A DNA stretch of 64,000 bases from an uncultured Clostridia bacterium (GCA_934169725.1 CAKPOF010000002.1:73986-137985); one strand, 5' to 3'; positions 1,447-63,508 are shown, counted from the first letter of the stretch. Made by a program: numbers and translations. The notes: generated by a model from the sequence alone, not told the origin.

Positions 1447-1488
1447 AAGATTAGTTGGAATTTTTATAACGACTAATCTTTTTTTCTT
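1447..1488 (+). terminator. Rho-independent terminator after the MscS gene
   Basis: Stem aagattagt / actaatctt followed by a T-run. Confidence 0.6.
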
Positions 1489-1600
1489 ACATTGGTGTCG
1501 CAATCTATTAATGTTTAATTGATAGTAGATTGTTCCAAATCGCATTCACTAAAGTTCGCTTGATCGCTTATGTGGTATTTCAAAAATAATATATATTGAG
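1486..1600 (+). repeat. Intergenic repeat element, copy 1 (core plus right TIR; left TIR replaced by the upstream terminator)
   Basis: cttacattggtgtcgcaatctattaatg...ttaattgatagtagattg...tccaaatcgcattcactaaagttcgcttgatcgcttatgtggtatttcaaaaataatatatattgag; aligns with copies at 4140, 11514, 56609 and 63364. Confidence 0.8.
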
Positions 1601-1714
1601 CTTTTTGAGATAAAATATTGAATTTTAGAAATTTATTAAAATTTTGTTCACAATATAGACATAAAACCAAAGTATAATATATAATAAAGTTAGTAAAATT
1701 TAGGAGTGATAAAA

Positions 1715-2392
1715 ATGCTAAATAGTTGTGTTTTAATTGTTGATGATGAACAAAGAATGAGAAAATTAATACGAGATTTTTTAACGGCAAAAGGTTTTAG
1801 CATATTAGAGGCTGAAGATGGAGAAAAAGGTTTAGCTGTATTTGAAGAAAATAAAAATAATATTAATTTAGTTCTTTTAGATGTAATGATGCCTAAATTA
1901 GATGGTTGGTCTGTGTTAAGACAAATAAGGCAAGAATCAAATGTTCCAGTAATTATGCTAACAGCTAGAGGAGAAGAACAAGATGAATTATTTGGATTTG
2001 AATTAGGTGTGGATGAATATATATCTAAACCATTTAGTCCCAAAATTTTGGTTGCCAGAGTTGAAGCAATTTTAAAGAGAACAAAAAAAGATGAAAAAGA
2101 AATTAAAGACTATGGTGGTATAGAAATAGATAAAGAAGGCAGAACAGTAAAAATAGATGGAAAATTGATAGAGTTAAGTCTAAGAGAGTATGAGCTTTTA
2201 ACATATCTTGTAGAAAATGAAAATATAGCATTATCAAGAGATAAAATATTAAATAATGTATGGAATTATGATTATTATGGAGATTCTAGAACAATAGATA
2301 GTCATATAAAAAAAATAAGACACAAATTGGGTAAAAAAGGAAAATATATTCAAACAATGAGAGGTGTGGGGTATAAATTCGAAGTAAAGTAG
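1715..2392 (+). CDS. OmpR-family response regulator (receiver plus winged-helix)
   Basis: LIVDDEQRMRKL...LLDVMMPKLDGW receiver motifs and C-terminal trans_reg_C RTIDSHIKKIRHKL...MRGVGYKF. RBS taggag sits 8 nt before the ATG at 1715. Confidence 0.85.
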   Translation: MLNSCVLIVDDEQRMRKLIRDFLTAKGFSILEAEDGEKGLAVFEENKNNINLVLLDVMMPKLDGWSVLRQIRQESNVPVIMLTARGEEQDELFGFELGVDEYISKPFSPKILVARVEAILKRTKKDEKEIKDYGGIEIDKEGRTVKIDGKLIELSLREYELLTYLVENENIALSRDKILNNVWNYDYYGDSRTIDSHIKKIRHKLGKKGKYIQTMRGVGYKFEVK

Positions 2393-2404
2393 GATTTTGT
2401 TAAT

Positions 2405-3910
2405 ATGAAAGGTAAAATGAAAAAAATAAAACATGCATTAAAATCTGTAAGAGTAAAATTATTTTTAATGTTATCATTGGTAATATTATTAATTATAATA
2501 TTTTTAATATTAGTAAATAATTTTGTATTTGGACAATTTTATTTATATAGTAAAACTAAAGACTTGGAAAAAGTATATATAGCTATAAATGAGTATTATA
2601 ATAATTCTAATAAGATTGATATTAATTCAGAGTTAGAAAAGATTGCTGTTAGAAATAATTTTGATATTTTAATAAAAAATGATGAGAATATAAATGTATT
2701 TACATCAAATAAAGATTTTTTATCAACATTTGGAGAAATGAATGCAATTAGAAATATAAAAAATAATGGTCAATTAATAGAACAGAATAATAATTTTGTA
2801 ATAAAAAAATTAAAGGATAATAAAACTGGAGTGTCATATATATTATTATACGCTAATTTAGACAATGGATATCTATTGTATATTAGAATACCAGTTTCAT
2901 CAATTGAAGAAAGTGTAAAAATATCTAATAATTTCTTGTATTTAATAGCAGGATTTACAATTTTAATTTCAGCTGTTATTGTGTCTTTTGTAAGCAGAAA
3001 ATTTACAGAACCAATATTAGAATTAAATACAATTGCAAAAAATATGTCTAATTTAGATTTTAGTCATAAATATAGAATTACAGATGCAGATGACGAGATA
3101 AATAATTTAGGAAAAAGCATTAATGTTATGTCTAGCAAATTAGAAAAAACAATAAAACAGTTAAGAAGTACAAATATTGAACTTGAAAGAGATATTGAGG
3201 AAAAATCAAAATTAGATGAAATGAGAAAAAGCTTTATTTCAGATGTTTCTCATGAACTAAAAACACCAATTGCATTAATTCAAGGATATAGTGAAGGATT
3301 GCTTGAAAATGTAAATACAGATGAAGAAAGTCGAAAATTTTATGCAGAAGTAATTTTAGATGAAACCAATAAAATGGATAAACTTGTAAAACAATTATTA
3401 GAACTAATGAAACTAGAATATGGAAAAAGAGAGTTTAATGACAAAGAGTTTAATATTGTTGAATTAGAAAAAGAAGTTATAAGAAAATCTAAAGTAATGT
3501 TACAAGAAAAAGAAGTTGAAGTAGAGCTTGAATCACCAGAAGAAATTAATGTAATAGCAGATGATTTTTATATTGAACAGGTAATAACAAACTATGTAAC
3601 TAATGCTATAAAACATGTTGAAGAAAAAGATGAAAAAAAGAAAATAATAATAACAAATTATGTGGATGTTGAAAAAAATAAAGTAAGAGTTAAAGTATAT
3701 AACACAGGTGAAAATATTGACGAAGAAGACTTGGTAAGAGTATGGAATAGATTTTACAAAGTTGATGAATCAAGAAATAGAGCTGATGGTGGAACAGGTA
3801 TAGGTTTATCATTTGTCAAAGCAATAATGACAAATTACAAAAATGAATATGGAGTTGTAAATAAAGAAAATGGAGTTGAATTTTATTTTGATTTAAATTT
3901 AAAAATATAA
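2405..3910 (+). CDS. Sensor histidine kinase partner of the response regulator
   Basis: N-terminal TM, HisKA SHELKTPIALIQGY, and HATPase_c motifs NAIKH...GGTGIGLSFVKAI. Confidence 0.85.
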   Translation: MKGKMKKIKHALKSVRVKLFLMLSLVILLIIIFLILVNNFVFGQFYLYSKTKDLEKVYIAINEYYNNSNKIDINSELEKIAVRNNFDILIKNDENINVFTSNKDFLSTFGEMNAIRNIKNNGQLIEQNNNFVIKKLKDNKTGVSYILLYANLDNGYLLYIRIPVSSIEESVKISNNFLYLIAGFTILISAVIVSFVSRKFTEPILELNTIAKNMSNLDFSHKYRITDADDEINNLGKSINVMSSKLEKTIKQLRSTNIELERDIEEKSKLDEMRKSFISDVSHELKTPIALIQGYSEGLLENVNTDEESRKFYAEVILDETNKMDKLVKQLLELMKLEYGKREFNDKEFNIVELEKEVIRKSKVMLQEKEVEVELESPEEINVIADDFYIEQVITNYVTNAIKHVEEKDEKKKIIITNYVDVEKNKVRVKVYNTGENIDEEDLVRVWNRFYKVDESRNRADGGTGIGLSFVKAIMTNYKNEYGVVNKENGVEFYFDLNLKI

Positions 3911-3923
3911 AAATAAATAGAAA

Positions 3924-3955
3924 ATAGCAATTTGATTATGAATTGCTATTTTTTA
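3924..3955 (+). terminator. Rho-independent terminator after the histidine kinase
   Basis: atagcaatt...aattgctat followed by tttttt. Confidence 0.6.
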
Positions 3956-4139
3956 ATGATATATTAATAAAATTATACATTATGTTGCCTACAAAAATAA
4001 AAATTATCCTAGAGTTTACTACTCTAGGACAACTTTTCTAATTAAAAGTATAACAATAAAAATATGTAATATCAAGAGTTTTATTGAAAAATAATATAGG
4101 GTTATAGAAATTTTCTCTAAAAATAAATAATTATGTTTT

Positions 4140-4277
4140 AAATTCAATAAATATTATTTTTCATACCTTGGTGTCGCAATCTATTAATTAAAAATTAATA
4201 GTAGATTGCTCCAATCGCACTCACTAGCGTTCGTTTGATCGCTTACGCGGTATTTCAAAATAATATTTATTGAATTT
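4140..4277 (+). repeat. Intergenic repeat element, copy 2 (full, with both TIRs)
   Basis: TIR aaattcaataaatattattttt / caaaataatatttattgaattt bracket cataccttggtgtcgc, the hairpin caatctattaat..attaatagtagattg, and tccaatcgcactcactagcgttcgtttgatcgcttacgcggtat. Confidence 0.8.
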
Positions 4278-4463
4278 TTATAATTTAGTTTTATATAAAA
4301 AAATTCCTAGAGTAGTAAACTAAAAGAAAAATAAAATAAAACACTATAACATATCAATTTAATACTTGCAAAAATATAAAATACAAGTATATAAAAAAAT
4401 TAGTTGTAAATAATAATACTAGGATATTGAATTATCAAATAGAACAATTGGGGGAAACAAAAG

Positions 4464-5810
4464 ATGGTAAAAAATAAAAATAGTAAAATAAAAGAAAAAA
4501 TGAAAAGAAGAAATGGTATAACATTAATAGCGTTAGTTATAACTATAATAGTACTTTTAATATTAGCAGGAGTAACAATTGCAAGTATAACAGGAGAGAG
4601 TGGTATATTAAATAAGGCAACAAATGCGAGAGATAATAATGCAAAAGCATCAGCAGAAGAAAGAATAGAAATAGAAGTATTAGGAAGTTATGATAATAAT
4701 GGAAATTTAAGTTTGGATAACTTAAATAATAATTTAAAAAATGTGGATGGTTTAAAATATAATGGAGATGTAATATCAGCTAGTAATAAAATAGAAAGTT
4801 TACCAGTTACAGTAAATATAGATGGATATGATGTAGTAATAACTAAACAAGGAGATATAGAAAAACCAAAAACATTAGGAGATGCAAAATCTGAGGATAT
4901 GCTAACTAAAAGTGAAAATACACTAGTAAATGTATCAGATAAAACAGTAAAAATTCCAGCAGGATTTAAAGTAGCAGATGATAGTGAGACAACAATAGAT
5001 GAAGGAATAGTAATAGAAGATAGTAAAAAGAATCAATTTGTATGGATACCTGTAAGTAGAGAAAATTTTGAAACAAATTTTGTCAGAAGAGAAGGATATT
5101 ATAATGGTAATCTACAAGATATTTCTAATTATGGAGAAGCAGATACTACAGGGGTAAATAAAAAAGTTACGGAAACAAAAACAACACAGGAAGAGGCTAA
5201 AAACATGTATGCAAGTGTAAAAAGAAATGAAGGATTTTATATAGCAAGATATGAGGCTGGAAAAGATGATGAAGGAAATGTAGTATTTAAAAAAGGAGTG
5301 GATGTATATAATTATATACCATGGTCTGCAAATGGAAAAATGCAAGAAACTACAGGAACAGCAGGAGGAGCTATAGAATTAGCGAGAAATTTTGCAAATG
5401 CAAATAATTATAAGACAGTCACAAGTACATTAGGTTATGGAGTGCAATGGGATGCTGTAATGAAATGGATAGAAAATGTAAATAATCCAAATGTAGAAGG
5501 AAAAACTTGTATACAAGATAGTACTGAAATTGGATGGTATAGTGATAATTATGGAGGAAATCTACAAAAAACAGGAACAGATATAAGAGAAGAAAATAAA
5601 GGTTCAAATCAAGTAAAAAAAATATACGACCTTGCAGGAAATGTTTGGGAATGGACAATGGAATCTTATTATGCTAATGACAGAGTTTATAGGGGAGGTT
5701 CTTGTTATGATGTTGGCTCTAAACTACCAATTTCTAGTCGTTGCAATTACATTCCTTCTGGTAGTCATTCAAATGTTGGTTTTCGTACCACTTTATTTTT
5801 AAATAGCTAA
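4464..5810 (+). CDS. Prepilin-like N-terminal (class III signal-like) protein with a C-terminal FGE-sulfatase/C-type-lectin-fold domain
   Basis: N-terminus MKRRNGITLIALVITIIVLLILAG (prepilin-like, Ala at +5). C-terminus DLAGNVWEWTMESYYANDRVYRGGSCYDV...SRCNYIPSGSHSNVGFRTTLFL matches the FGE/DUF323 WEW...RGGS...GFR pattern. Confidence 0.7.
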   Translation: MVKNKNSKIKEKMKRRNGITLIALVITIIVLLILAGVTIASITGESGILNKATNARDNNAKASAEERIEIEVLGSYDNNGNLSLDNLNNNLKNVDGLKYNGDVISASNKIESLPVTVNIDGYDVVITKQGDIEKPKTLGDAKSEDMLTKSENTLVNVSDKTVKIPAGFKVADDSETTIDEGIVIEDSKKNQFVWIPVSRENFETNFVRREGYYNGNLQDISNYGEADTTGVNKKVTETKTTQEEAKNMYASVKRNEGFYIARYEAGKDDEGNVVFKKGVDVYNYIPWSANGKMQETTGTAGGAIELARNFANANNYKTVTSTLGYGVQWDAVMKWIENVNNPNVEGKTCIQDSTEIGWYSDNYGGNLQKTGTDIREENKGSNQVKKIYDLAGNVWEWTMESYYANDRVYRGGSCYDVGSKLPISSRCNYIPSGSHSNVGFRTTLFLNS

Positions 5811-8213: not shown

Positions 8214-8250
8214 TTCATTTTCATACCTTGGTGTCGCAAATCACATATTA
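8214..8250 (+). repeat. Truncated repeat element (left end only), copy 3
   Basis: ttcataccttggtgtcgcaaatcacatattaaaatcat; the 3' conserved half is missing. Confidence 0.65.
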
Positions 8251-8341
8251 AAATCATATTTTTAACTTTTTAAAACTATTGAATAAAAAAGTAAATTTTG
8301 ATAGAATATATTGGAAAATAAAAAATAAGGGAGCGTAAAGA

Positions 8342-11463: not shown

Positions 11464-11513
11464 AGTATTTTTTTAAAATTTAATATGTATTATTTTTAAA
11501 ATGTTCATTAATT

Positions 11514-11664
11514 AAAGTTCAATATTTATTATTTTTTTTCATACTTTGGTGTCGCAAACTGCATATTAAAATTACTAGTATGTAGTTTGCTCCAAATCGC
11601 ACTCACTATCGTTCGTTTGGTCGCTTACGCAGTATGAAAAAAATAATAAATATTGAACTTTAAT
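11514..11664 (+). repeat. Intergenic repeat element, copy 4 (full, with TIRs)
   Basis: TIR aaagttcaatatttattatttttttt / gaaaaaaataataaatattgaactttaat bracket catactttggtgtcgc, the hairpin caaactgcatat..atgtagtttg, and tccaaatcgcactcactatcgttcgtttggtcgcttacgcagtat. Confidence 0.85.
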
Positions 11665-11782
11665 TTAAAACATAACAATATAAATATCATTAATATTAAT
11701 TTATGTTATTACAATAAAATGTTTAAATTAATATTATAGAGTAAATACTTATAAAGAATAAAAAAAGAAAAAAGGTGAATTT

Positions 11783-12678: not shown

Positions 12679-13821
12679 ATGAAAACAAGATATTTTGATA
12701 ATGCTGCTACAACAAAAGTAAAAGAAGAAGTGATTGAAAAGATGTTTCCATATTTAGTAGAAGAGTATGGGAATCCATCATCATTATATAAAAAGGGGAG
12801 AACAGCCAAAATTGGAATAGAAGATGCAAGACAAAAAGTTGCAGATTTAATTAATTGTGAAAAAAATGAAGTTTTTTTTACTAGTGGTGGAACAGAAAGT
12901 GATAATACTGCTTTGAAAGGAATAATGCATTTAAGTGAAAATAGTAAAAAGCATATAATAACAACAAAAATTGAACATCCAGCAATATTAAATAGTTGTG
13001 CGACTTTAGAAAAAGAGGGATATGAAGTAACGTATTTAAATGTAGATAAAGATGGTATGGTTGATTTAGAAGATGTTGTAAATAATATAAAAGAAAATAC
13101 AGTTTTAATAAGTATAATGTATGCTAATAATGAAATAGGAGTTATTGAACCTATAGAAAAAATAGGAGAAATTGCTAGAAAAAGAGGAATTATATTTCAT
13201 ACAGATGCGGTTCAGGCTTGTGGAAATGTGGATATAGATGTTAAAAAGCAAAATATCGATATGTTATCCATTTCAGGACATAAAATAGGAGCTCCAAAAG
13301 GAATAGGTGCAATATATGTAAAAAATTGTATAAAATTTAATAATTTTATAGATGGAGGTCATCAAGAAAAAGAAAAAAGAGCAGGTACGGAAAATGTAGC
13401 TGGAATTGTTGGACTAGGAGAAGCATGTAAAATTGCAAAAAATAATATGGAAAATCATATTATGAAATTAAAAAAAATGAGAGATTATTATTTTTCAGAA
13501 ATGAAAAAAGAGATTGCTGATATAAAAATAAATGGATCATTAGAACAAAGATTACCAGGAAATAGTAATATATCATTTAAAAATATAAATGGAAGTGAAC
13601 TATTGTTAAAGCTAGATGAAAAAGGAATATGTGCATCAGCTGGTAGTGCATGTTCTTCTGGAAATAGCACACCATCACATGTATTAACTGCAATAGGAGT
13701 TGATAGTGAATATGCAGAAGGAACTTTAAGGGTAACTTTTGGAGATGAAAATACACAAGAAGATTTGGAATATTTAATTAAAAATTTAAAAGATATAGTT
13801 AGGAATTTAAAAAATAAATAA
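12679..13821 (+). CDS. nifS: Cysteine desulfurase (NifS/IscS class V aminotransferase)
   Basis: FDNAATT...SGHKIGAPKGIGAIYV PLP-lysine region and the SxxCSSG active-site cysteine loop. Confidence 0.85.
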   Translation: MKTRYFDNAATTKVKEEVIEKMFPYLVEEYGNPSSLYKKGRTAKIGIEDARQKVADLINCEKNEVFFTSGGTESDNTALKGIMHLSENSKKHIITTKIEHPAILNSCATLEKEGYEVTYLNVDKDGMVDLEDVVNNIKENTVLISIMYANNEIGVIEPIEKIGEIARKRGIIFHTDAVQACGNVDIDVKKQNIDMLSISGHKIGAPKGIGAIYVKNCIKFNNFIDGGHQEKEKRAGTENVAGIVGLGEACKIAKNNMENHIMKLKKMRDYYFSEMKKEIADIKINGSLEQRLPGNSNISFKNINGSELLLKLDEKGICASAGSACSSGNSTPSHVLTAIGVDSEYAEGTLRVTFGDENTQEDLEYLIKNLKDIVRNLKNK

Positions 13822-13907
13822 AAGCTGTAAAAAATACAATTAAGAAAATTGTTATAATTTACAACTTATTATAAATTTGAATATTATACTTTGTATAAAT
13901 AATTATT

Positions 13908-15569
13908 TTATATACTAGAAAAGTCAAAATTTGTATAAATTATTAAGGCTTTCCGATTTGTTTTAGTGGAATTTCCTAAGATGGAAAGACTTATTTTTAT
14001 TCCATCAACAGCAGCAGACATTATTCCGCCAGCATATCCAGCACCTTCACCGCAAGGATATATGCCATCAATATTTGATAAAAATGAAGAATTTCTTATG
14101 ATTTTTACAGGAGAAGAACTACGAGTTTCAACACCTGTTAGAATTGCATCAGGATTAGCAAATCCTGATAATTTTTTATCAAAGTATAAAATACCTTCTT
14201 TTAGTGTTGAAGACACAAAAGATGGTAATATATCATTTAAATTAGACAAGGTTGTGCCTGGTAAATATGAAGGAACAATATTACCAATTTTAGAAGATGC
14301 TTTATTTTGCAAAAAGTCTTCAATTCTTTGAATAGGTGCATTATAATTTGAACCACCTAATTTAAATGCCTTTTCTTCTAAATTTTGTTGAAAGTAAATT
14401 CCAGCCAAAGGAGAAGAATCATTAAAATCATCTGGAGTTACATTAACAAGCAAAGCAGAATTGGCATTTTTACCATTTCTAGCAAAATTACTCATACCAT
14501 TTGTGACAATCGTGTTTTTATCACTTGATGAAGCCATAACAGAACCACCGGGACACATGCAAAAAGTATAACAAGAACGACCAGAAGGTGAATGATAAGA
14601 AAGTTTATATTCAGCAGGTGGTAATTTTAAATGTGTACTATTTCCATATTGTGCAATATTAATGTCAGTTTGAGAATGCTCAACTCTAACACCAACTGAA
14701 AAGTTCTTCTTTTCAAGTTGTAATCCATTTTTATACAATAATTCAAAAGTATCTCTAGAGCTATGCCCGATAGCTAAGATTAATCTTGAAGTTGGTATAG
14801 TAAATATAGAATCATTTACAAGGTCATGTAGTTTTACAGAAGTAATTTTATTATTTGTAGATTCAAAATCTATGAATTTGGTATTAAAATAAAATTTACC
14901 TCCTTTAGAAATTATATAATTACGCATAGATTTAAGAATATTTATGAGATTATCAGTACCAATATGTGGTTTTGATAAATATAAAATTTCTTGGGGAGCA
15001 CCGAACTTAACAAATTCTTGCAAAACTTTTTTACATAATGGATTATTAATTCCAGTAGTAAGTTTACCGTCAGAAAATGTACCGGCACCACCCTCACCAA
15101 ATTGAACATTTGATGAAGTATTTAAAATCCTATTTTTTAAAAGATTGTCAATATCTTTTTTTCTATCATCCACTTTTTTTCCTTGTTCAATAATAATGGG
15201 AGAAATACCATTTTGAACTAATGTTAATGCTGAAAAAAGACCAGCTGGTCCAGAACCAACAATAACGGGAGAATGTTCAGATTTTAAAGATTTTATTACA
15301 TTAAAATCTAATTTTTCTTTAATTATTTTTTCTATATCAATAGGATGTATTTTTTCAAATTTATGATATTTATTTTCATCTTTTACAAATATATCAAGTG
15401 TATAATTAAAAAATATATCATTTTTCTTTCTAGCATCAATAGATTTTTTGAATATTTTCCAATTTACAATATCAGAAAAATTTATATGATATTTTTTGCA
15501 TACATGTTTAATTAAATTTTCATCAGAAATATTTTGACGTATTTTTATATTATTAATTCTTAGCATAAT
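13908..15569 (-). CDS. FAD-dependent dehydrogenase (COG2509-like, NAD(FAD)-utilizing)
   Basis: VIVGSGPAGLFSA Rossmann motif and conserved C-terminal GEGAGYAGGIMSAAVDG. Start set at MLRINN (RBS aaggag, 6 nt spacer) rather than the longer ORF. Confidence 0.75.
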   Translation of the reverse strand: MMLRINNIKIRQNISDENLIKHVCKKYHINFSDIVNWKIFKKSIDARKKNDIFFNYTLDIFVKDENKYHKFEKIHPIDIEKIIKEKLDFNVIKSLKSEHSPVIVGSGPAGLFSALTLVQNGISPIIIEQGKKVDDRKKDIDNLLKNRILNTSSNVQFGEGGAGTFSDGKLTTGINNPLCKKVLQEFVKFGAPQEILYLSKPHIGTDNLINILKSMRNYIISKGGKFYFNTKFIDFESTNNKITSVKLHDLVNDSIFTIPTSRLILAIGHSSRDTFELLYKNGLQLEKKNFSVGVRVEHSQTDINIAQYGNSTHLKLPPAEYKLSYHSPSGRSCYTFCMCPGGSVMASSSDKNTIVTNGMSNFARNGKNANSALLVNVTPDDFNDSSPLAGIYFQQNLEEKAFKLGGSNYNAPIQRIEDFLQNKASSKIGNIVPSYLPGTTLSNLNDILPSFVSSTLKEGILYFDKKLSGFANPDAILTGVETRSSSPVKIIRNSSFLSNIDGIYPCGEGAGYAGGIMSAAVDGIKISLSILGNSTKTNRKALIIYTNFDFSSI

Positions 15570-16497: not shown

Positions 16498-16570
16498 ATA
16501 ATAGAAATTAATATCACCATTCTACAAAAAATGACATAAAATATAATAGCTTTATTTTGAGGTGATATTA

Positions 16571-17380
16571 ATGAAAAGAATAAAAGTTGGTGATATAGTA
16601 AGTAGAAAATCATATAATAATGATATTTTATTTAGAGTAAAAAGGATATTAAATAAAAAAAATGACAAAATTGTGATATTATCAGGAGTAATAGAAAGAG
16701 TAGAAGCAGATTGCAATATAAAAGATTTAGAATTAGCAAGCAGTGATAGAGTAAACAATGATTTGCTATATATCCAAGGAAGAATAGATAATAAAGCAGG
16801 TAATAAACTAGAAGGAAAAAGGACACAGTATATAATAACTGGTAAAATATTGCATTTAGATGGAGATAGAAAATATAGTGAAAAATCATATCGATATTAT
16901 AAAAAATTAGGATTAAATGCTATAGTTAAAAATATACCTGAATATAAACAATCAAAAGTTGTTTATAATTTATTAAGAACATATGAACCAGATATATTAA
17001 TAATAACTGGTCATGACGGAATGATAAAAAATTCAACAAGATATAATGATTTGGGTAATTATCGAAATTCAAAATATTTTATAGAAACAGTAAAAGAGGC
17101 AAGAAAATATGATAAAGAAAAAAACAACAATTTAGTTATATTTGCAGGGGCTTGTCAAAGCTATTTTGAGGCACTTATATCAGCTGGTGCAAATTTTGCA
17201 TCATCACCTGGAAGAATATTAATAGATTTTATTGATCCATTAATAGTGGCAGAAAAAGTTGCTATAACAGAAAAATATAAATATATAACAATAGATGATA
17301 TTGAAGATGAATTACGTGATGGAAAAAAAGGAATAAATGGAATTGGTGCAAACGGAAAAATGTATAGAATAATAAAATAA
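16571..17380 (+). CDS. yabG: Sporulation-specific protease YabG
   Basis: Whole-length YabG-family similarity (IKVGDIVSRKSYNNDI...TGHDGM...FAGACQSYFEAL). Confidence 0.8.
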   Translation: MKRIKVGDIVSRKSYNNDILFRVKRILNKKNDKIVILSGVIERVEADCNIKDLELASSDRVNNDLLYIQGRIDNKAGNKLEGKRTQYIITGKILHLDGDRKYSEKSYRYYKKLGLNAIVKNIPEYKQSKVVYNLLRTYEPDILIITGHDGMIKNSTRYNDLGNYRNSKYFIETVKEARKYDKEKNNNLVIFAGACQSYFEALISAGANFASSPGRILIDFIDPLIVAEKVAITEKYKYITIDDIEDELRDGKKGINGIGANGKMYRIIK

Positions 17381-17483
17381 AAAAATGTAACAAAAATGAA
17401 ATATAAATGTAAAATAAAAGTAATAAACATTAAAAAACATTGAAAAACAAGCAAAGACAGGATGCTTTAAAAAAATACTTTTT

Positions 17484-17512
17484 TTGACAATTATCCCTTG
17501 AAATGCTATAAT
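17484..17512 (+). promoter_or_regulatory. Consensus sigma-A promoter upstream of veg
   Basis: TTGACA (17484-17489), a 17-nt spacer, then TATAAT (17507-17512). Confidence 0.7.
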
Positions 17513-17541
17513 TAAGCCATCTTAAGGGAGTAGGTGATAGC

Positions 17542-17841
17542 GTGATTTGTAAAAATGACATAACAAATCTAAAAACTGACATCTTAGAAAAAGTAGGGCA
17601 AAAGATAATAGTAAAAGGTTCTTTAGGTAGAAGTAAAGCCTTTGAAAAAGAAGCTACGATAGAAAAAGCATATCCAAATATTTTTGTTGTTAAATATGAG
17701 GAAAATAATAGAAATGTAACATATAGTTATACAGATGTTTTAACAAGAACTGTTGAGGTTGAGGTTTTTGATGGAGATTCATATAGTCCATTAATTCCAC
17801 CACCTGTTAACTTTAAAAAAAGAAAAACACATGAAATGTAA
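17542..17841 (+). CDS. veg: Veg protein (GTG start)
   Basis: DITNLKTDILEKVGQKIIVKGSLGRSKAFEKEATIEKAYPNIFVV matches the Veg family; RBS gggag upstream. Confidence 0.8.
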   Translation: MICKNDITNLKTDILEKVGQKIIVKGSLGRSKAFEKEATIEKAYPNIFVVKYEENNRNVTYSYTDVLTRTVEVEVFDGDSYSPLIPPPVNFKKRKTHEM

Positions 17842-17842
17842 A

Positions 17843-17872
17843 AGAAAACTGTAAAAGGTTTTCTTTTTTTTC
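17843..17872 (+). terminator. Rho-independent terminator after veg
   Basis: agaaaac...gttttct followed by tttttttt. Confidence 0.6.
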
Positions 17873-17941
17873 TTAAATATGTTCTAAATTCTACAAGCAT
17901 TAATATAATGAAAGTAAATAAGTCTAGTTAGGAGGTAAAAA

Positions 17942-19513
17942 ATGGTTGTAGATACAATAAAAGAAAATTTGAGAATAAATAAAAAAGTAGCAACAAAAAA
18001 AGAAATTATATTTGTTGAAGGTGATGTAATAGTTCCAGATGCAAAACCAGATGTTTTAAATGTAATTTGTACAAGTGGGGTGGTAAGTGTTTATAAAAAG
18101 GAAATTATAGATGAAAAAATAAAAATGGAAGGTCAAATTGATACATATATTATGTATATGTCAGATGATAATCAAGGCAATATAAGGGGAATAAATACGA
18201 GTTTAGAATTATCAGAAGTTATAAATATATCAAACATAACAAGTGAAATGAAAAGTAATATAAATTCTAAGATAAAAGAAATTGAGGCTAAAGTTGTAAA
18301 TGAGAGAAAGATATCAATTAAAGCGACACTAGAAATAAGCATAGAGTTTTTTTCAGAAGAAAATATCTCAATAATAAATAATTTAGAAAGTGAAAATGAA
18401 ATAAAAATGCTACAAGAAGAATTAGCTGTAAATTCATTAGTAGGAGAAGGAGAAACAAAAATATTTACTAAAGATAATATTGCTATAGATAATGCTGATA
18501 ATTTAATAGAAATTTTAAAAGTAGATATGAATATATGTAATAAAGATATAAAAATTAGTTACAACAAAGTATTAACAAAGGCGGAAGCAGAAATAAAGAT
18601 AATATATTTAACAGAAGATAATAGGATAAATAAAACAATATCAAAAATACCTATAATTGGTTTTATAGATATACCAGAAGTAAATGAAGGAAATCTTTGT
18701 GATTCTAATTATGAAATAAAAAATATAATGATAAAACCAAATTCTACTGAAGAACATTCTATATATGTAGAATTTGAAATAGGGGTTAATACTGTTGTAT
18801 ATACTCAAAAAACAATTAACATTATTCAAGATATATATAGTCCATGCGAAAATATTGATTTCAATAAAAAAACTGTTAGAGTTATATCACGTAAAGAACA
18901 AAAAGTGAATACTAAAGAAATAAAGGAAAGAATAAAAATTGAAGAATTAGAAGATAAAGATTTAATAGATGTAAATATAATTCCAAATATGACTAAAGAA
19001 AATATAGAAGGAAACCAAATTCAATATAGTGGAGAATTAGAGTTAAGGTTTATGATGATGGGAAATGACATGCAAATGGTAACAACTAGAAAAAATATTT
19101 CCTTTGAATATAATGTTGAAAATGTAAGTGATATAGATAATACTAATGTAAAAAGTAATATAGAAATAACAAATCAAGATTTTGTTATACAAGACAATGG
19201 AGAGATTTTGGTAAATGTAAAAATGATTTTTTATACAAACATAGAGAAAAATGCTAGTATAAATACTATTGATGAAATAGAAGTGAATGGAGAAAGAGAA
19301 GAGCAAGATTATAGCTTAATTATGTATATTGTAAAAAAGGGAGATAGCTTATGGAAAATTGCTAAAAAATATGGAAGTACAATTGAAGATATTGTGAACT
19401 TAAATGGTATAGAAGATCCAGAAGTTATATCTCCAGGACAAAAAATCTTTATACCAAGATACAGAAGAAATAAAATCAGTAAACAGCAACAATCAATGGT
19501 AAATTATGGATAA
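17942..19513 (+). CDS. LysM-domain protein with DUF3794-like repeats (SafA/spore-coat-assembly-like)
   Basis: C-terminal LysM IVKKGDSLWKIAKKYGSTIEDIVNLNGI...PGQKIFIP. Confidence 0.7.
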   Translation: MVVDTIKENLRINKKVATKKEIIFVEGDVIVPDAKPDVLNVICTSGVVSVYKKEIIDEKIKMEGQIDTYIMYMSDDNQGNIRGINTSLELSEVINISNITSEMKSNINSKIKEIEAKVVNERKISIKATLEISIEFFSEENISIINNLESENEIKMLQEELAVNSLVGEGETKIFTKDNIAIDNADNLIEILKVDMNICNKDIKISYNKVLTKAEAEIKIIYLTEDNRINKTISKIPIIGFIDIPEVNEGNLCDSNYEIKNIMIKPNSTEEHSIYVEFEIGVNTVVYTQKTINIIQDIYSPCENIDFNKKTVRVISRKEQKVNTKEIKERIKIEELEDKDLIDVNIIPNMTKENIEGNQIQYSGELELRFMMMGNDMQMVTTRKNISFEYNVENVSDIDNTNVKSNIEITNQDFVIQDNGEILVNVKMIFYTNIEKNASINTIDEIEVNGEREEQDYSLIMYIVKKGDSLWKIAKKYGSTIEDIVNLNGIEDPEVISPGQKIFIPRYRRNKISKQQQSMVNYG

Positions 19514-20204
19514 GATTTATTCTAGAACAAAAATAAAATTACCAAATTTGATAAAGGACTCAAAAAAATGGAAAAAAATATTAATAATTATAATATTAAT
19601 TATTATGATATTTTTTTCTATTGATATGACTATGAGTGCTGTAAATCCAATATTTGAAACTTTATGTGAAGATAAAGCTAAAAGTATAGCAACTATTGTA
19701 TCTAATGAACAAGCTACAAAAGTTATAAATGAATATAAATATGAAGATTTATTTTCAATTGAAAAAGATGTTAATGGTAACATTATAATGATAAAATCAA
19801 ATATAAATCCAATAAATGGTATAATTTCTGATGTTGGGCAAAAAATTCAAGAAGAATTAAATAAACAAGGAAGAAATAATATACAAATAGCATTGGGAAG
19901 TTTTACTGGTATAAAATTATTATCAGGAAGAGGACCAGGGATTAATATACAAATATCATCAATTGGAAATGTTGAAACAGATTTAAGAAGTGAATTTACA
20001 GAACAAGGAATAAATCAAACTTTACACAGAGTTTATTTACAAGTGGATTGCGAAGTAAGTATATTAACACCTTTTAAAGATATAGATAAAAAAATATCTA
20101 ATCAAGTATTGTTATTAGAAAATGTAATAATTGGAACAGTACCAAATACATATTACAATATAGAAGGAATAGATAAAAGCCAAGCAGTAGATATAATAGA
20201 ATAA
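19506..20204 (+). CDS. yunB: Sporulation protein YunB
   Basis: N-terminal TM plus YunB-family length and similarity; placed after a SafA-like gene in a sporulation context. Confidence 0.65.
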   Translation: MDKIYSRTKIKLPNLIKDSKKWKKILIIIILIIMIFFSIDMTMSAVNPIFETLCEDKAKSIATIVSNEQATKVINEYKYEDLFSIEKDVNGNIIMIKSNINPINGIISDVGQKIQEELNKQGRNNIQIALGSFTGIKLLSGRGPGINIQISSIGNVETDLRSEFTEQGINQTLHRVYLQVDCEVSILTPFKDIDKKISNQVLLLENVIIGTVPNTYYNIEGIDKSQAVDIIE

Positions 20205-33520: not shown

Positions 33521-33599
33521 ATTAAGTTTAACAAATAATATTTTACACATTTTATGTAATTTTGTCAATAAATATACAAATATTCTGTAAGTTAAATAT

Positions 33600-33860
33600 T
33601 TAAAGATGTGAATTGTAATGCAAATTATCTATAATTGCAGCTGATATAATAAAACTAACATATAAATTTAATCCTATGGCTAATACAAGTATACCCAATT
33701 GGTAAATAAATAGTGAAGAATAAAATAAATATGTAAGTAGAATGATAGAAGAAATAATACAAATAGCAAATGATGAATTTAGTCCTATTTTTAAAATATG
33801 TAAAATTTTTTTATCTAAATTTTTATAATATGAAATTAAAAATTTTATCATAATATCCAC
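33600..33860 (-). CDS. Hypothetical small membrane protein (2-3 TM)
   Basis: ORF only; hydrophobic segments. Confidence 0.35.
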   Translation of the reverse strand: MDIMIKFLISYYKNLDKKILHILKIGLNSSFAICIISSIILLTYLFYSSLFIYQLGILVLAIGLNLYVSFIISAAIIDNLHYNSHL

Positions 33861-36306: not shown

Positions 36307-36325
36307 AATGATAGGAGAATGATTT

Positions 36326-38165: not shown

Positions 38166-38279
38166 AAATAATAAATCATTATTAAATTTTATAAGCTAAT
38201 ATTTTGAATTGTGAATTGTAGCATCTGTAGTTACGATAAAAAAGTAAAGATACAAGGAATACTAAAAAAGGAGAAACAC

Positions 38280-45413: not shown

Positions 45414-45457
45414 AAATTTATGTTACAATTCATAGTTTATAAAATAGATTATTTTTA

Positions 45458-45516
45458 AATTTGATAATATAATATATTGTTTTTTTATACCTTGGTGTCG
45501 CAAACCCATATTAAAA
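45458..45516 (+). repeat. Truncated repeat element (left TIR plus start of core), copy 5
   Basis: aaatttgataatataatatattgtttttttataccttggtgtcgcaaacccatattaaaaat; the left TIR is about 85% identical to that of copy 7. Confidence 0.65.
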
Positions 45517-45599
45517 ATAAATTTTATAAAAAATATGGTAAAAAATAAAAAATTATGATAGGATATTAATGAAAAAAATAAAGATTTAATGGTGATAAA

Positions 45600-52831: not shown

Positions 52832-53653
52832 ATGAAAGACAAAATTACAGTTTTAATAGCTGATGATAATCAAGAATTTAGTCAAACATTGGCATCATAC
52901 ATAGATTCACAAGATGATATGGAGGTTATAGCAAAAGCGAAAGATGGAACAGAAGTAATAGATATAATTACAAACACTATACCAGATATAATGTTATTAG
53001 ATGTAATAATGCCACATTTAGATGGTTTAGGAGTTTTGGAAAATATGAATAAAATAAAATTAGCAAAAAAACCAATTTGTATAATGCTATCTGCAGTAGG
53101 GCAAGACAAAGTAACACAAAGAGCAATAGAATTGGGTGCACAATATTATGTAGTAAAACCATTTGACATAGAAGTATTGATAAAAAGAATGAGGGAATTT
53201 AAATACTATAAACCATCACCACAAAATAATAATAATTTTATTACAAGAGAAACTAAACCACAGTATATTGATATTTCACCTGAAGATACTAATGTTGAAA
53301 AAAATTTAGAAGCATTGGTAACAAATATTATTCATGAGGTAGGTGTTCCAGCACATATAAAGGGATACCAATATTTAAGAGAAGCTATAATGATGGTGGT
53401 AAACGATATTGATGTAATAAATCAAATAACAAAAAGTTTATATCCACAAATAGCGCACAAATTTAGCACAACTCCAAGTCGCGTAGAAAGAGCAATAAGA
53501 CATGCTATTGAAGTAGCATGGGGACGTGGACAACAAGAAACAGTAGAAAAAATATTTGGATATACAATTTCAGCTTCAAAAGGAAAGCCAACCAACTCAG
53601 AATTTATAGCAATGATTGCTGATAAATTACGTTTAGAATTAAAGAGTGCATAG
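52832..53653 (+). CDS. spo0A: Stage 0 sporulation protein A (master regulator)
   Basis: Receiver domain (LIADDNQE...[11 protein letters not shown]) and the Spo0A-specific C-terminal domain [19 protein letters not shown]...[15 protein letters not shown]. Confidence 0.95.
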
Positions 53654-55866: not shown

Positions 55867-56566
55867 ACTATTAAGGAGTGAAAAAATGAAATTCAAGATA
55901 GATCTGAAAATTTTTTTATTAATCATTTTATTTTTATGCACAAATCAAATAAAAATATATGGAATGATGATGTTATTTGCAATTATACATGAGTTAGGTC
56001 ATTTAATAGCAGGAATAATATTAAAAATGAAGCCTAATCAATTAAAGATAAATCCATTGGGAATCTCCATAGAATTTGATATTAAAAATAGAGATTATAA
56101 TATAAAAATTCAAAAAGCAAATTTATTGGAAATAAAGAAAATTATTGTTGCATTGGCTGGACCATTAACTAATTTTATAATTATTTTAATTTTAAGATAT
56201 ATAAATATATTTTCTGAATATGATAAACTTATAATGACATATTCAAATGCTTTATTAATAGTATTTAATATTTTGCCGATATATCCTTTAGATGGAGGCA
56301 GAGTTTTAAAAAGTTTAATATATATTTATAAAGGAAAGCATTTAGCGGAAGAATATACATATAATACATCATATATAATATTAATATTGTTAACAGCAAT
56401 AAGTAGTGTAACTGTGTTATGGTTAAAAAATATATCAGTATTTTTTATAATAATATTTTTATGGGGATTACAAATAAAAGAAAGTATAAAATATAAAAAT
56501 AGAAAGAAACTGTATGAACTTATAAAATATGAAACAGAGAGTTACAATTCACAGCTTATAAAATAA
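55856..56566 (+). CDS. spoIVFB: SpoIVFB-type site-2 protease (M50, pro-sigma-K processing)
   Basis: HELGH zinc motif and NILPIYPLDGG. Confidence 0.8.
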   Translation: MNYKLLRSEKMKFKIDLKIFLLIILFLCTNQIKIYGMMMLFAIIHELGHLIAGIILKMKPNQLKINPLGISIEFDIKNRDYNIKIQKANLLEIKKIIVALAGPLTNFIIILILRYINIFSEYDKLIMTYSNALLIVFNILPIYPLDGGRVLKSLIYIYKGKHLAEEYTYNTSYIILILLTAISSVTVLWLKNISVFFIIIFLWGLQIKESIKYKNRKKLYELIKYETESYNSQLIK

Positions 56567-56608
56567 ACTATTATTAAATTTGTATAATAAAAAAAATAAA
56601 TCGTTTTT

Positions 56609-56754
56609 AAATTTAATAATATATTGTTTTTTTCATACCTTGGTGTCGCAAACCACATATAAAAATTACTAGTATGTAGTTTGCTCCAAATCGCACTCAC
56701 TATCGTTTGTTTGATCGCTTACGCAGTATTTCAAAAAAATATATTATTAAATTT
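56609..56754 (+). repeat. Intergenic repeat element, copy 6 (full, with TIRs)
   Basis: TIR aaatttaataatatattgttttttt / caaaaaaatatattattaaattt; core cataccttggtgtcgc; hairpin caaaccacatat..atgtagtttg; tccaaatcgcactcactatcgtttgtttgatcgcttacgcagtat. Confidence 0.85.
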
Positions 56755-56886
56755 TTATAAGTTAAATATTTTAAGTTGGAAATTGTAATAACAGAGAAAT
56801 TTGGTGAGAAAAAACTAAAAATTCCTATTGAAAATAAAACAAATTAATAGTAAACTATTACTAAAGAAAAAGTGGAGGGAATGCAA

Positions 56887-59344: not shown

Positions 59345-59376
59345 CAATAGAACAAAAGTTGGAGGGAAATTTAATA

Positions 59377-60018: not shown

Positions 60019-60044
60019 AAATAAAATAGAAAAAGAGTGGTTTA

Positions 60045-61151
60045 ATGAGAAAAAGAGATTTAAAAAATATGGAATGGGGAATTTTGATAGTTGCAATTAT
60101 TCTATGTGTAATAGGAATGATTGCATTATTTTCAGCAACTCAAGAAACAGAACATGATGAATTTACAAAACAAATAATATGGTTTGTTGTTAGTATAATA
60201 TTTATGGTGGTCATAATGTTTATAGATTATAATGTATTGTTAAAAGCATCACCTGTATTGTATGGAATGTGTTTACTATTGTTAATTGCCGTATTATTTA
60301 CAACACCAATAAATGGAGCAACAAGCTGGTTTAATATTGGTGCGTTTTCTTTTCAACCAGGGGAATTTGCAAAAGTTTTTGTAATACTGTTTTTGGCATA
60401 TACTGTTGTAAAAATACAAAGAAAAGGACAAAATGAAATAAATAAAATAACAAAATTATTTCTTGCTTTAGCAGTAGTTGGGATACCTGTTTTATTACTT
60501 GTAATGCAACCGGACTATGGAACATCATTAGCATTTATAGTTGCAATAGGATTGATATTGTTAGCAGCAGGGTTAGATAGAAAATATATTATAGGAACAA
60601 TTTTAATAGTAGTAATAAGTGTACCATTATTATATAATTTTGTATTACCAGAACATGCAAAATCAAGAATAGATGTATTTTTAAATCCTGAATCAGATCC
60701 TAGAGGAGCAGGATATAATATAATTCAATCAAAACTAGCAATAGGAGCAGGAGGACTAACAGGGATGGGAATCTTAAAAGGAAATCAAACACAATTAGGA
60801 TTTTTATACCCTAAAACTACAGACTTTATATATTCTGTTATAGGAGAAGAAATGGGATTTATAGTAGCAGGAGGAATTATTCTTCTATATATATATTTAA
60901 TAACTAAATGTATATATATTGTAAAAACAGCTAAAGATAGAGCTGGCTCACTAATAGCAATAGGAATTACAGGAATATTTTTATTTCATGTAATAGAAAA
61001 TATTGGAATGGTTATGGGATTATTGCCAATAACAGGTGTACCGTTACCATTTATAAGCTATGGAGGAAGTTCTTTAATAACAAATTTTATGTGTATAGGA
61101 TTATTATTAAATATTAGTGGAAAAAGACAAAAAACAATATTTGTTCAATAA
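60045..61151 (+). CDS. rodA: SEDS-family peptidoglycan glycosyltransferase RodA (FtsW/RodA/SpoVE)
   Basis: 10 TM; conserved SEDS motifs; located after minDE. Confidence 0.85.
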   Translation: MRKRDLKNMEWGILIVAIILCVIGMIALFSATQETEHDEFTKQIIWFVVSIIFMVVIMFIDYNVLLKASPVLYGMCLLLLIAVLFTTPINGATSWFNIGAFSFQPGEFAKVFVILFLAYTVVKIQRKGQNEINKITKLFLALAVVGIPVLLLVMQPDYGTSLAFIVAIGLILLAAGLDRKYIIGTILIVVISVPLLYNFVLPEHAKSRIDVFLNPESDPRGAGYNIIQSKLAIGAGGLTGMGILKGNQTQLGFLYPKTTDFIYSVIGEEMGFIVAGGIILLYIYLITKCIYIVKTAKDRAGSLIAIGITGIFLFHVIENIGMVMGLLPITGVPLPFISYGGSSLITNFMCIGLLLNISGKRQKTIFVQ

Positions 61152-61171
61152 TACAATAATATTGGAGAAAA

Positions 61172-62148
61172 TGATGAATTACTTAAAAAAATTAAAAATA
61201 GGAAATGTAGAATTAGAAAATAATTTAATATTAGCACCAATGGCAGGCGTAACCAATAAGCCATTTAGAATAATTTGTAAACAATATGGTGTTGGAATGG
61301 TATGTACAGAAATGGCAAGTGCAAGGGCAATGTACCATAATGACTTAAAAACAAAAAGATTATTAGATACAACAGGAGAAAAAAGACCAATTAGTATGCA
61401 AATATTTGGAAGTGATGAAGAATCAATGGCATATGCTGCCAAAAGTGTTAGTAAAATTGCAGATATATTAGATATAAACATGGGATGTCCGGCACCAAAA
61501 GTTGTAAAAAATGGAGATGGCAGTAAACTATTATTAGATTTAAAAAAGGCAGAAAAAATATTAAAATCTGTTGTAGATAATTCAGAAGTTCCAGTTACAT
61601 TAAAAATAAGAAAAGGCTGGGATAAAGAAAATATTGTTGCTGTTGAGATAGCTCAAATAGCAGAAAGTGTAGGAATTTCAGCAATAACTGTACATGGCAG
61701 AACAAGAAGTGAATTTTATTCGGGAGATGCTGATTGGGACATTATAAAAAAAGTTAAAGAAAATGTAAAAATACCTGTAATAGGAAATGGTGATGTAATA
61801 GATGGAGAAACTGCTAAAAAAATGTTAGAATATACAGGTGTTGATGGAATTATGATAGGTAGAGGAAGCTTTGGGAGACCATGGATATTTAAAGAAATAA
61901 TTGAATATTTAAAAAATGGTGAAGAAATAAAAGAACCTACAAGTAAAGAAAAATTAGAAGTAATAAAAAAACATATACAATTAGCAGTAGAAGAAAAGGG
62001 AGAAATAGCTGTAAAAGAAATGAGAAAACATATTGCTTGGTATACTAAAAATCTAAAAAATTCAAGCGAATTTAGAAGTTCAATTAATAAAATAGAAAGT
62101 GAAAAAGAATTGCTAGATAAAGTAGAAACATATTTTAAAACTTTATAG
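61172..62148 (+). CDS. dusB: tRNA-dihydrouridine synthase
   Basis: LAPMAGVTNKPFR...DINMGCPAPKV... Confidence 0.9.
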
Positions 62149-62257
62149 AATAGTATTTAGAAGAATTATTTATATAAATAATTCTTCTTTTTCTATAATA
62201 TGAAAGTTCGTCAAACTTCATATTACAGAATATTACGCTTTCTTAGGAGGGGATTTT

Positions 62258-62863
62258 TTGAAAATTTTAAAAATAAAAAAAATACCAAAAATATTAATAA
62301 TTCTCATAATATTAATAATATTAATATTTTTTCTAATAAATAAGAGTAAAAAAAATATTATTGGAAATAATAAAAACAGTCAAGATATAATTAATAATAT
62401 TTTAAATATTAGCTCATATGAAGCAACAATAGATTTAGAAGTAAATAGTAATAAAAATAGCAATACATATACACTAAAACAAAAATACATATATCCTAAT
62501 CAATATGAACAAGAAATAATAGAACCAGAAGATATGAGAGGTATAAAAATAATAGCTAAAGAAAATGAAATAAAATTAGAAAATCCAAAAATAGAAATTA
62601 ATAAAACATATAAAGATAACAAATATGAAGATAATTATATAAATTTGTATACATTTATAAAAAAATATAAGGAAAGTGAAAACGCAAAAAGTAAAGAAAT
62701 AAATAATGAAATAGTGCTTAGTATGGAAGAAGATAATAAATACTGTAAATATGTATCATTATATATAGACAAAAGCACGGAAAAACCGATTAAACTAGAA
62801 ATAAAGAATGATAACAAAAAAACATTAATCTACATATTATATAAAGAAGTAAAGTTAACTTAA
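62258..62863 (+). CDS. Hypothetical secreted or membrane-anchored protein
   Basis: N-terminal TM/signal anchor; no recognisable motif. Confidence 0.45.
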   Translation: MKILKIKKIPKILIILIILIILIFFLINKSKKNIIGNNKNSQDIINNILNISSYEATIDLEVNSNKNSNTYTLKQKYIYPNQYEQEIIEPEDMRGIKIIAKENEIKLENPKIEINKTYKDNKYEDNYINLYTFIKKYKESENAKSKEINNEIVLSMEEDNKYCKYVSLYIDKSTEKPIKLEIKNDNKKTLIYILYKEVKLT

Positions 62864-62936
62864 TATAACTTTACAATTACTAATATTTAAAGTAAAAAAT
62901 AAACTTGATAAATACTAATAATAGGAGTGAAAATTA

Positions 62937-63287
62937 ATGGTAATAAAAAGAGGAGATATGTTTTATGCAGATTTGAGTCCTGTTATAGGATCAGAACAAG
63001 GTGGAATACGTCCAGTACTAATAATTCAAAACGATTTAGGGAATAAATATAGTCCAACAGTAATAGCTGCAGCAATTACCTCACAAACAGGAAAAACAAA
63101 ATTACCAACACATATAGAAATTGAATCAGAAACATGTGGATTAAAAAGTAATTCTGTTGTTTTAACAGAACAAATAAGAACTATAGATAAAAGTAGATTA
63201 AAAGAAAAAATAGGTCATATAACAGATGAAAAAATAATAAATAAAGTTAATAATGCTCTAGGCGTTAGTTTTGGATTAGAAGAATAG
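62937..63287 (+). CDS. mazF: MazF/PemK/EndoA-family type II toxin endoribonuclease
   Basis: [33 protein letters not shown]...[10 protein letters not shown]... full-length EndoA/MazF similarity. Confidence 0.85.
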
Positions 63288-63363
63288 TAAATGTAAAAAA
63301 GTAATCTAGTTTTAGATTACTTTTTAAGTGCTGTGTTACAATTCGTAATTCTAAATATTTATA

Positions 63364-63508
63364 AAATTTGATACTATATTGTTTTTTTATACATTTGTGT
63401 CGCAAACCACATATTAAAATTATTGGTATGTAGTTTGCTCCAATTCGCACTCACTATTGTTCGTTTGATCACTTACGCGGTATTTAAAAACAATATAGTA
63501 TCAAATTT
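63364..63508 (+). repeat. Intergenic repeat element, copy 7 (full, with a perfect 23-bp TIR)
   Basis: aaatttgatactatattgttttttt ... aaaaacaatatagtatcaaattt; core tatacatttgtgtcgc; hairpin caaaccacatat..atgtagtttg; tccaattcgcactcactattgttcgtttgatcacttacgcggtat. Confidence 0.85.

Follow-up and report, generated by a model that had tools for sequence, protein, structure and literature searches.

In known interspersed palindromic repeats, the ends are conserved and the interior drifts. In miniature inverted-repeat transposable elements (MITEs), it is the terminal inverted repeats (TIRs) that are conserved and that the transposase binds, and a target duplication, TA in the case of the Correia elements, lies on either side. 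Repetitive extragenic palindrome (REP) units are 20–40 nt long, and a REPIN consists of two inverted REPs and a variable spacer, the system being dependent on a RAYT transposase. A 64,000-nt stretch of DNA from an uncultured Clostridia bacterium (GCA_934169725.1 CAKPOF010000002.1:73986-137985; hereafter, the window) contains copies of a repeat family that is the reverse of these: its asymmetric interior is conserved across species, its arms change freely while continuing to pair, and the interior can flip.

By label, the window carries five full and two 5'-truncated copies of the repeat (c1 to c7), all on the + strand, non-coding and intergenic. A first-pass annotation, made from the sequence alone, had described a ~145-bp repeat with TIRs at these seven loci in a single orientation; pattern, profile and covariance-model scans confirm both the loci and the orientation, and the multi-copy, non-coding and intergenic nature of the repeat is likewise supported. 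The motif TTGGTGTCGC, with at most one mismatch, matches seven times in the 64-kb window against 0.54 expected, every time on the + strand, and a 25-nt motif from the right part of the core matches five times against 0 expected. A profile hidden Markov model built from the full copies recovers the five full copies with E values of 1e-41 to 3e-33 (1477–1603, 4140–4277, 11515–11660, 56609–56754 and 63364–63508) and matches the left end only (left 40–45 nt) at 8214–8255 and 45473–45515, with E ~7e-7. A covariance-model scan with filters off finds no additional full copy in the window and, of the two truncated copies, recovers c5 alone, weakly. Each copy comprises an asymmetric ~95-nt core enclosed by inverted arms of 25–120 nt. 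The window copies, with helices named as in the fold given below, are as follows:

c1, 1477–1603, + strand: degenerate core at 1487–1578 (TTACA, TTATGTGG) and right arm at 1579–1603
c2, 4140–4277, + strand: left arm at 4140–4162, core at 4163–4253 and right arm at 4254–4277
c3, 8214–8255, + strand, truncated: degenerate left arm and 5' core as far as the 5' strand of P3
c4, 11510–11665, + strand: arms at 11510–11538 and 11637–11665, core at 11541–11635
c5, 45422–45520, + strand, truncated: outer boundary motif at 45422–45435, left arm, and 5' core as far as the 5' strand of P3
c6 with its outer layer, 56541–56794, + strand: outer motif at 56541–56554, left arm at 56609–56634, core at 56635–56729 and right arm at 56730–56754
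c7 with its outer layer, 63330–63548, + strand: inner arms at 63364–63388 and 63484–63508, core at 63389–63483

The copies lie 2.6–34 kb apart with housekeeping genes between them, a density of roughly one per 9 kb. Their pairwise identity is 72–94% in the core and 62–88% in the arms, in place of the 85–95% and ~80% first estimated. The arms are 100% complementary over 29 nt in c4 and over a 21-nt stretch in c2, and P1 of c4 (ATACT/AGTAT) is a compensated pair. The outer inverted repeat of c7 (GCTGTGTTACAATTC at 63330–63344, with its complement at 63534–63548) makes the whole a 219-nt palindromic unit; the outer right motif of c6 is degenerate (~56782–56792). Copies c1, c3, c5 and c7 are decaying. 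As the annotation had observed, c1 has no left arm, an upstream terminator hairpin and T-run occupying that position and abutting the core; the copy is conserved in L001–L003. The c7 core is degenerate in P1 and P2, and this copy is fixed in 10 strains. The break point of both truncated copies is the P3 loop, and the promoter region of a CNNM/CorC gene comes after c3.

In single-stranded form, the core adopts the fold of a three-way junction, closed by the arms (helix P0). Read from its 5' side, it first has a 3x3 internal loop in which TTT faces TTC. P1 is NNACC/GGTNN, and the invariant P2 (TGG/CCA) is followed by a TGTC bulge. P3 (GCAA...TTGC) carries a variable stem-loop extension where large insertions are tolerated, and the junction strand after it reads (A/T)NTCGCA, with TCGCA near-invariant. 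P4 combines a lone pair (C:G or T:A) with a TC/TC internal loop and a variable hairpin. The 3' junction strand, TTTGRTCGCTTACGC, is near-invariant and includes an invariant TTAC.

This fold is strongly supported by covariation, which also bears out the earlier suggestion of a structured module. With 64 non-redundant copies aligned by MAFFT, pairing holds in 91.2% of cells compared with 80.1% after column shuffling, and there are 304 double-sided changes compared with 87. In a model-fitted alignment of 101 distinct rows, which leans toward the model, 94.3% of cells pair (79.9% when shuffled) and double-sided changes number 558 (159 when shuffled); with the partner strand slid on this alignment, pairing drops to 35–50%. 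P1 is found as ATACC/GGTAT, GTACC/GGTAC, GCACC/GGTGC, ACACC/GGTGT, GAACC/GGTTC and TTACC/GGTAA. An unbiased mutual-information scan places every top pair on the proposed helices and, as regards pseudoknots, adds nothing beyond them save one possible triple at positions 73-80-92. The fold z-scores of the copies lie between -4.5 and -10.6.

Insertions into the core are observed at several other loci. Those in L051 (3946–4109), L058 (59–256) and L088 (3558–3778) lie in the P3 loop, and that in L090 (5657–5848) lies between P4 and the 3' junction strand; all are within a size range of 30–110 nt, and some fold as hairpins themselves. In L142 (7165–8975), the sequence runs from a left arm through the 5' core, as far as the 5' strand of P3, directly into a gene for a 492-residue pilin-like/FGE-sulfatase protein, after which comes a right arm unit. 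The break lies where it does in c3 and c5, suggesting that the P3 loop is a recurrent point of recombination or insertion.

The main rival reading, of modest probability, is that the copies are structured non-coding RNA genes or modules, in which the + strand would be transcribed, the arm helix processed (e.g. by RNase III) and a ~100-nt three-way-junction RNA released. Transcription would either begin from an inward-facing TGnTACAAT, resembling a -10 box, within the outer boundary motif or reach the element by read-through, and the invariant single-stranded segments would act by protein binding, target pairing or catalysis. The junction strands are indeed invariant, P1, P3 and P4 covary over ~100 copies, and copies at orthologous sites are retained across species whose flanks are 71–86% identical. 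The outer motif does contain TACAAT facing the core, often after TGn, but is present in only ~20% of copies, and several of the window copies are truncated or degenerate in P1 and P2. On the + strand, G.T exceeds A.C in P3 (42 to 14) and P4 (9 to 0; combined, 51 to 14); however, the P3 excess comes mostly from one pair, P1 shows the opposite (2 to 9) and the arms show no signal (11 to 15). Assignment of a strand to the putative RNA from these counts was rejected because the signal is inconsistent. In addition, the core occurs in both orientations relative to neighboring genes and is flipped between strains, arms of 82–120 nt that are 98–100% complementary far exceed the needs of RNA folding, and Rfam offers no relative even at E values up to 10.

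The window copies belong to a real repeat family, scattered between genes of uncultured low-G+C gut Clostridia, that has no counterpart in the resources searched here. The family is present in at least 120 metagenome stretches, nearly all from the human gut, and in 10 loci of metagenome-assembled genomes (MAGs) from uncultured Clostridia or 'Clostridium sp.'; these are the true members among 118 loci from a MAG-contig scan whose 14-base pattern was too short, most of its matches being due to chance. Across all retrieved sequence there are ~150 profile matches, of which 135 are near-full-length and 104 unique, with 66 remaining after removal of near-duplicates. Units span 140–350 bp without an open reading frame (ORF), and more than 100 loci lie outside the window. 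A pattern scan of viral contigs did not find the family, and BLAST searches of plasmid and phage records gave no match. The annotation had recognized no named repeat, and Rfam agrees: the whole window gives 0 matches at gathering thresholds, and at E values up to 10, with the core alone included, no relative is found. The matches at that level are plant microRNA hairpin models on the AT-rich arm helix and two chance-level matches (E = 3.7) on the L151 core; the c6 core is without any match. A literature string search for the core motifs returned unrelated primer matches alone, and the first 200 supplement files of a structured-RNA survey of the human microbiome (PMC8040213) hold no match.

The window is ~25% G+C, and its + strand carries most genes. 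Its placement in uncultured gut Clostridia follows from syntenic contigs in metagenomes and from the titles of MAGs. Spo0A, YabG, SipL and YunB are encoded in the window (52832–53653, 16562–20204), and these sporulation genes indicate a spore-forming host within the Clostridia, its 25% G+C content and MAG-only status notwithstanding.

The arms differ from the core in being conserved only in their inner ~20 nt (64% ungapped identity; consensus ATAATATATTGTTTTTT). Identity between copies in the outer 16 nt is 36%, near background for the base composition. Outer arms are unrelated between lineages, yet they are 94–100% self-complementary within a copy, and gapped alignment of the two arms of a copy matches a median of 27 of 32 positions, the conserved internal loop counted in. 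The view that the TIRs are part of the element therefore stands for the inner inverted repeats of ~20 nt; it does not extend to the outer arms, which are unrelated between copies and do not resemble a conserved transposase-type TIR. Arms in the window species are AT-rich and ~25 nt long. A second lineage has 82-nt arms, 100% complementary, built of two TGGCAAT...GGTTCCGGGTTT modules, a third has 120-nt arms of higher G+C content that are 98% complementary, and another case elsewhere has arms of 103 nt that are 94% complementary. Whole long arms are common to copies at different loci of one lineage. Finally, ~20% of family copies carry an outer layer that ends, ~60 nt from the core, in a further boundary motif (GTTACAATTCACAG); c5, c6 and c7 are among them and reach further than the ~145 bp initially proposed.

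Parts of the arms also occur without the core. The second-lineage arm module is found solo as a REP-like hairpin directly after stop codons. A REP-like 33-nt unit, ATTGCCAC(C)GGTTCCGGGTTTRRATGGCAAT, directly follows stop codons in related species, single or in tandem and with A/T runs on either side, and inverted pairs of this unit build the 82-nt arms of the long-arm subfamily. In the window, solo outer motifs (TGTGAATTGTAA) with outer-arm-like sequence are present in - orientation at 33575–33620 and 38170–38222, one of them ~60 nt upstream of the start of an SMC gene. Sites of these solo parts are:

L155 12040–12140: REP-like 33-nt unit
L161 1350–1440: REP-like 33-nt unit
L212 1560–1680: REP-like 33-nt unit
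L235 2550–2620: REP-like 33-nt unit
L231 4990–5040: REP-like 33-nt unit
Window 33606–33619, - strand: solo outer boundary motif (ATTACAATTCACAT), no core
Window 38209–38222, - strand: solo outer boundary motif with adjacent outer-arm sequence that resembles the right flank of c6, no core

Since both the REP-like module and the outer motif also occur alone, the element is a mosaic, as bacterial interspersed mosaic elements (BIMEs) are.

At orthologous sites, the arms co-evolve in place. In two species with 86% identical flanks, the copies in the orthologous HPr-ptsI spacer have many differences in the arms and P3, each mirrored in the partner strand. Similarly, the outer arm of c7 reads GCAGTG...CACTGC in L251 and GCTGTG...CACAGC in other strains, a compensated change. 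An outer inverted duplicate is present around c2:

4004–4330, no strand assigned: terminator hairpin at 4004–4040 repeated as its reverse complement at 4294–4330

The terminator is that downstream of a histidine-kinase gene, and the two repeats are 37 nt long and 76% complementary. This duplicate looks like outward growth of the palindrome.

Outer arms that are complementary within a copy and unrelated between copies would also be expected if the core were a miniature element of the IS200/IS605 type (PATE-like) whose insertion sites are the loops of existing palindromes, such as terminators or REP-like hairpins, with the arms being target DNA. This origin is unlikely. It draws support from the L152 unit, which sits inside a terminator-like stem flanked by A5 and T5, and from the orthologous spacer in L155, which is a plain terminator; the REP-like unit that builds the long arms and is also found solo after stop codons, and the invariant TTAC of the 3' junction strand, fit as well. 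However, the inner ~20 nt of the arms are conserved family-wide and long arms are common to different loci of one lineage, neither of which suits captured target DNA. REP-like units flank the core whole and in inverted pairs, not as split halves, the window contains no core-less palindrome of arm sequence, and no Y1/HUH transposase gene is seen in ~1 Mb of family loci. Insertion into terminator loops as a general rule was rejected, though single cases look so, because A/T runs outside the outermost inverted match are not enriched (17 and 19, compared with 16 and 17 in the control).

Comparison of strains provides evidence that the core inverts in place. At one locus, strains whose flanks are 97–98% identical differ in that the 95-nt core of one group matches the reverse complement of the other at 100% identity (L153, L171 and L189 in one orientation, L168 and L129 in the other). 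At a second locus, L212 differs in the same way from L169 and L238, and the shared inverted repeat is only ~28 nt. An inverted core is thus found in 2 of 19 orthologous groups; the other 17, which include the ten-strain c7 group, have a single orientation. Both orientations at one locus with flanks unchanged, together with the conserved inner ~20 nt of the arms, could reflect an inverton-type switch in which a site-specific recombinase acts on the inner inverted repeats and flips the core, toggling neighboring genes. Some neighbors do encode surface proteins (thioester/SpaA adhesin, sortase, WG-repeat and pilin-like FGE-sulfatase proteins). Such a switch is nevertheless quite unlikely, given the 17 groups of uniform orientation, the many copies that adjoin unrelated housekeeping genes and the 41 copies that lie between convergent genes, where no promoter is needed. 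The 95-nt core contains no convincing promoter, and no recombinase gene is adjacent in the window or at family loci. Moreover, homologous recombination between long perfect inverted repeats would yield inversion anyway.

The element prefers gene 3' ends, and its orientation bias is weak. Family-wide, 41 copies lie between convergent genes and 13 between divergent genes, and in tandem-gene contexts 33 are in the same orientation as the genes and 20 in the opposite one. Neighboring copies on one contig agree in orientation in 11 pairs to 1, the window included, and 55 copies are on the leading strand and 32 are not, by a crude inference of replication direction. The uniform orientation in the window (7 of 7) is the upper end of a bias and no rule. 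The strict orientation relative to downstream genes that the first-pass annotation had proposed fails family-wide on the tandem counts, the convergent placements and the cores inverted between strains; a strict relation to genes or to replication was not upheld.

Six of the seven window copies are upstream of + strand genes, as a conserved promoter or leader acting in cis on those genes would be, but this explanation is very improbable. The downstream genes are unrelated in function (in the window, an OmpR-type regulator, an FGE-sulfatase protein, a CNNM transporter, a patatin and unknowns), and family-wide the downstream gene is on the opposite strand in 70 cases and on the same strand in 55, with the 41 convergent placements in addition. 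Promoters and ribosome-binding sites are recognizable downstream of the element for the window copies. The specific alternative that the annotation had raised, a leader or promoter of a paralogous gene family, was rejected because the neighbors are functionally unrelated and there is no fixed orientation.

Gain and loss of the element are evident between species. Seven loci with the element correspond, in a related species with flanks 70–80% identical, to an orthologous spacer that is without it, and the window itself lacks it at three such sites (36290–36341, 13821–13908 and 61125–61183). L002 was rejected as an 'empty site' for c2 because the deletion runs into the next gene: in L002 6770–7080, compared with window positions 4125–5400, the deletion extends from ~12 nt upstream of the c2 left arm into an FGE-sulfatase-domain gene (4464–5810) and takes out c2 and the 5' part of that gene. 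The family has spread to many unrelated intergenic sites and is fixed within species, with subfamilies that have lineage-specific arms.

The preferred reading, which has about an even chance of being correct, is that of a lineage-specific family of non-coding, non-autonomous foldback repeats, MITE-like in kind and BIME-like in mosaic make-up. Lineage-specific arms common to different loci, gains and losses between species, and decaying and truncated copies together point to a foldback repeat amplified within lineages. The folded core, not the termini, would be the part under selection, probably as a structure-specific recognition module for a trans-acting enzyme, with a single-stranded hairpin as the intermediate by which the element is copied or moved. 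Arm complementarity may be kept by intra-element recombination or template switching (gene conversion), and arm-to-arm conversion may occasionally flip the core and extend the palindrome into the flanks. Recombination or template switching between the arms would account for core inversion, for concerted arm evolution and for inverted duplication of flanks such as that around c2. In a read-through transcript, a copy would add a predicted very stable hairpin at the mRNA 3' end.

Several observations weigh against the foldback-repeat reading. First, conservation is lowest at the termini, contrary to the pattern of a classical MITE, and a functional RNA would equally leave a signature of conserved unpaired strands and covarying helices; palindrome-correcting mutation, not selection, could also partly produce covariation in short hairpins. 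Second, orthologous spacers without the element, for which the annotation had recommended a search, exist between species, but no insertion polymorphism within species is found in 19 orthologous groups. No consistent target-site duplication was seen at the inner or outer boundaries of the window and outer-motif copies, an inspection whose power is limited by AT-rich flanks and by the lack of a clean filled/empty pair within a species. Third, the window contains no transposase with matching ends, an IS3-type fragment and an HTH_38 ORF having unrelated ends, and no neighboring protein recurs in multiple contexts across ~1 Mb of family loci. Fourth, the 82-nt perfect arms at the first inversion locus could let an assembler mis-orient the core; such an artifact is less likely at the second locus because the shared inverted repeat there is only ~28 nt. 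The annotation's term MITE-like holds for small size, non-coding nature, copy number and gain or loss between species; it fits the inverted repeats in part at most, their inner ~20 nt being conserved and their termini variable, and neither a target duplication nor a matching transposase was seen in support of it.

The window also contains a mobile-element-like cluster at 20574–27015, no member of which has ends like the repeat arms:

20574–21866, - strand: HTH_38 ORF, 430 residues
22023–22928: ORF with internal 21-nt tandem repeats
22976–23377: bAvd-like ORF with a diversity-generating-retroelement accessory fold, no reverse transcriptase being seen nearby
26410–27015: IS3-type integrase-core fragment

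It is conceivable, though rather unlikely, that the 95-nt three-way junction represents a new class of functional folded nucleic acid, either a structured RNA, for instance one that recruits a protein or cleaves itself, or a single-stranded DNA recognition module of a hairpin-dependent copying or inverting system in Clostridia. If so, the long, concertedly evolving arms would be part of its life cycle through folding back, processing or inversion, and it would be without bacterial precedent as a foldback-type element that carries a conserved structured cargo. The family is a natural system for the concerted evolution and inversion of inverted repeats, and it draws attention to a candidate module of structured RNA or single-stranded DNA in abundant uncultured Clostridia of the human gut. 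At the density observed in the window, the repeat will affect assembly, strain comparison, and terminator and promoter prediction in these genomes.

The family shares individual features with several described systems. Like the Correia elements of Neisseria and other bacterial MITEs, it consists of non-coding units of 100–350 bp bounded by inverted repeats, with many intergenic copies, long hairpins, and presence or absence between related species. In contrast to those elements, variation here is greatest at the termini, no duplication was seen and conservation falls on an asymmetric three-way junction inside the element. REP, BIME and REPIN sequences are similar in being extragenic hairpin repeats after gene ends, in forming mosaics of alternating orientation and in their long-term persistence at fixed loci; in contrast to a REPIN, the 'spacer' here is a conserved 95-nt structured core, and no GTAG or CGTC head tag defines the unit. 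No RAYT was found, in a search that took in no complete genome of a carrier species. The 127-bp enterobacterial repetitive intergenic consensus (ERIC) sequences, or intergenic repeat units (IRUs), are also long imperfect intergenic palindromes, often co-transcribed, in either orientation, with insertions at defined internal sites and seemingly constrained folding. However, the sequences are unrelated, and ERIC is palindromic through its center, whereas the center of the present family is non-palindromic and structured and its arms vary in length and sequence.

In invertons, as in this family, a short stretch bounded by inverted repeats occurs in either orientation depending on the strain, but they occupy few loci per recombinase, have a promoter inside and usually a recombinase gene near, whereas this family has many copies with no convincing promoter and no recombinase found. 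Integron attC sites have conserved R''/L''...L'/R' boxes (RYYYAAC / GTTRRRY), a variable center and an array beside intI; the copies show the opposite conservation pattern, with a conserved center and variable ends, and there are no R boxes and no integrase in the window. Eukaryotic Foldback (FB) transposons are similar in their variable-length arms of tandem sub-repeats (here TGGCAAT...GGTTCCGGGTTT), near-perfect complementarity and invertible center, but are without a conserved structured center; to our knowledge, no bacterial counterpart family of FB elements has been established. What sets the family apart within interspersed palindromic repeats is the combination of a covariation-supported three-way-junction core, freely varying arms that evolve in concert, and inversion in place.

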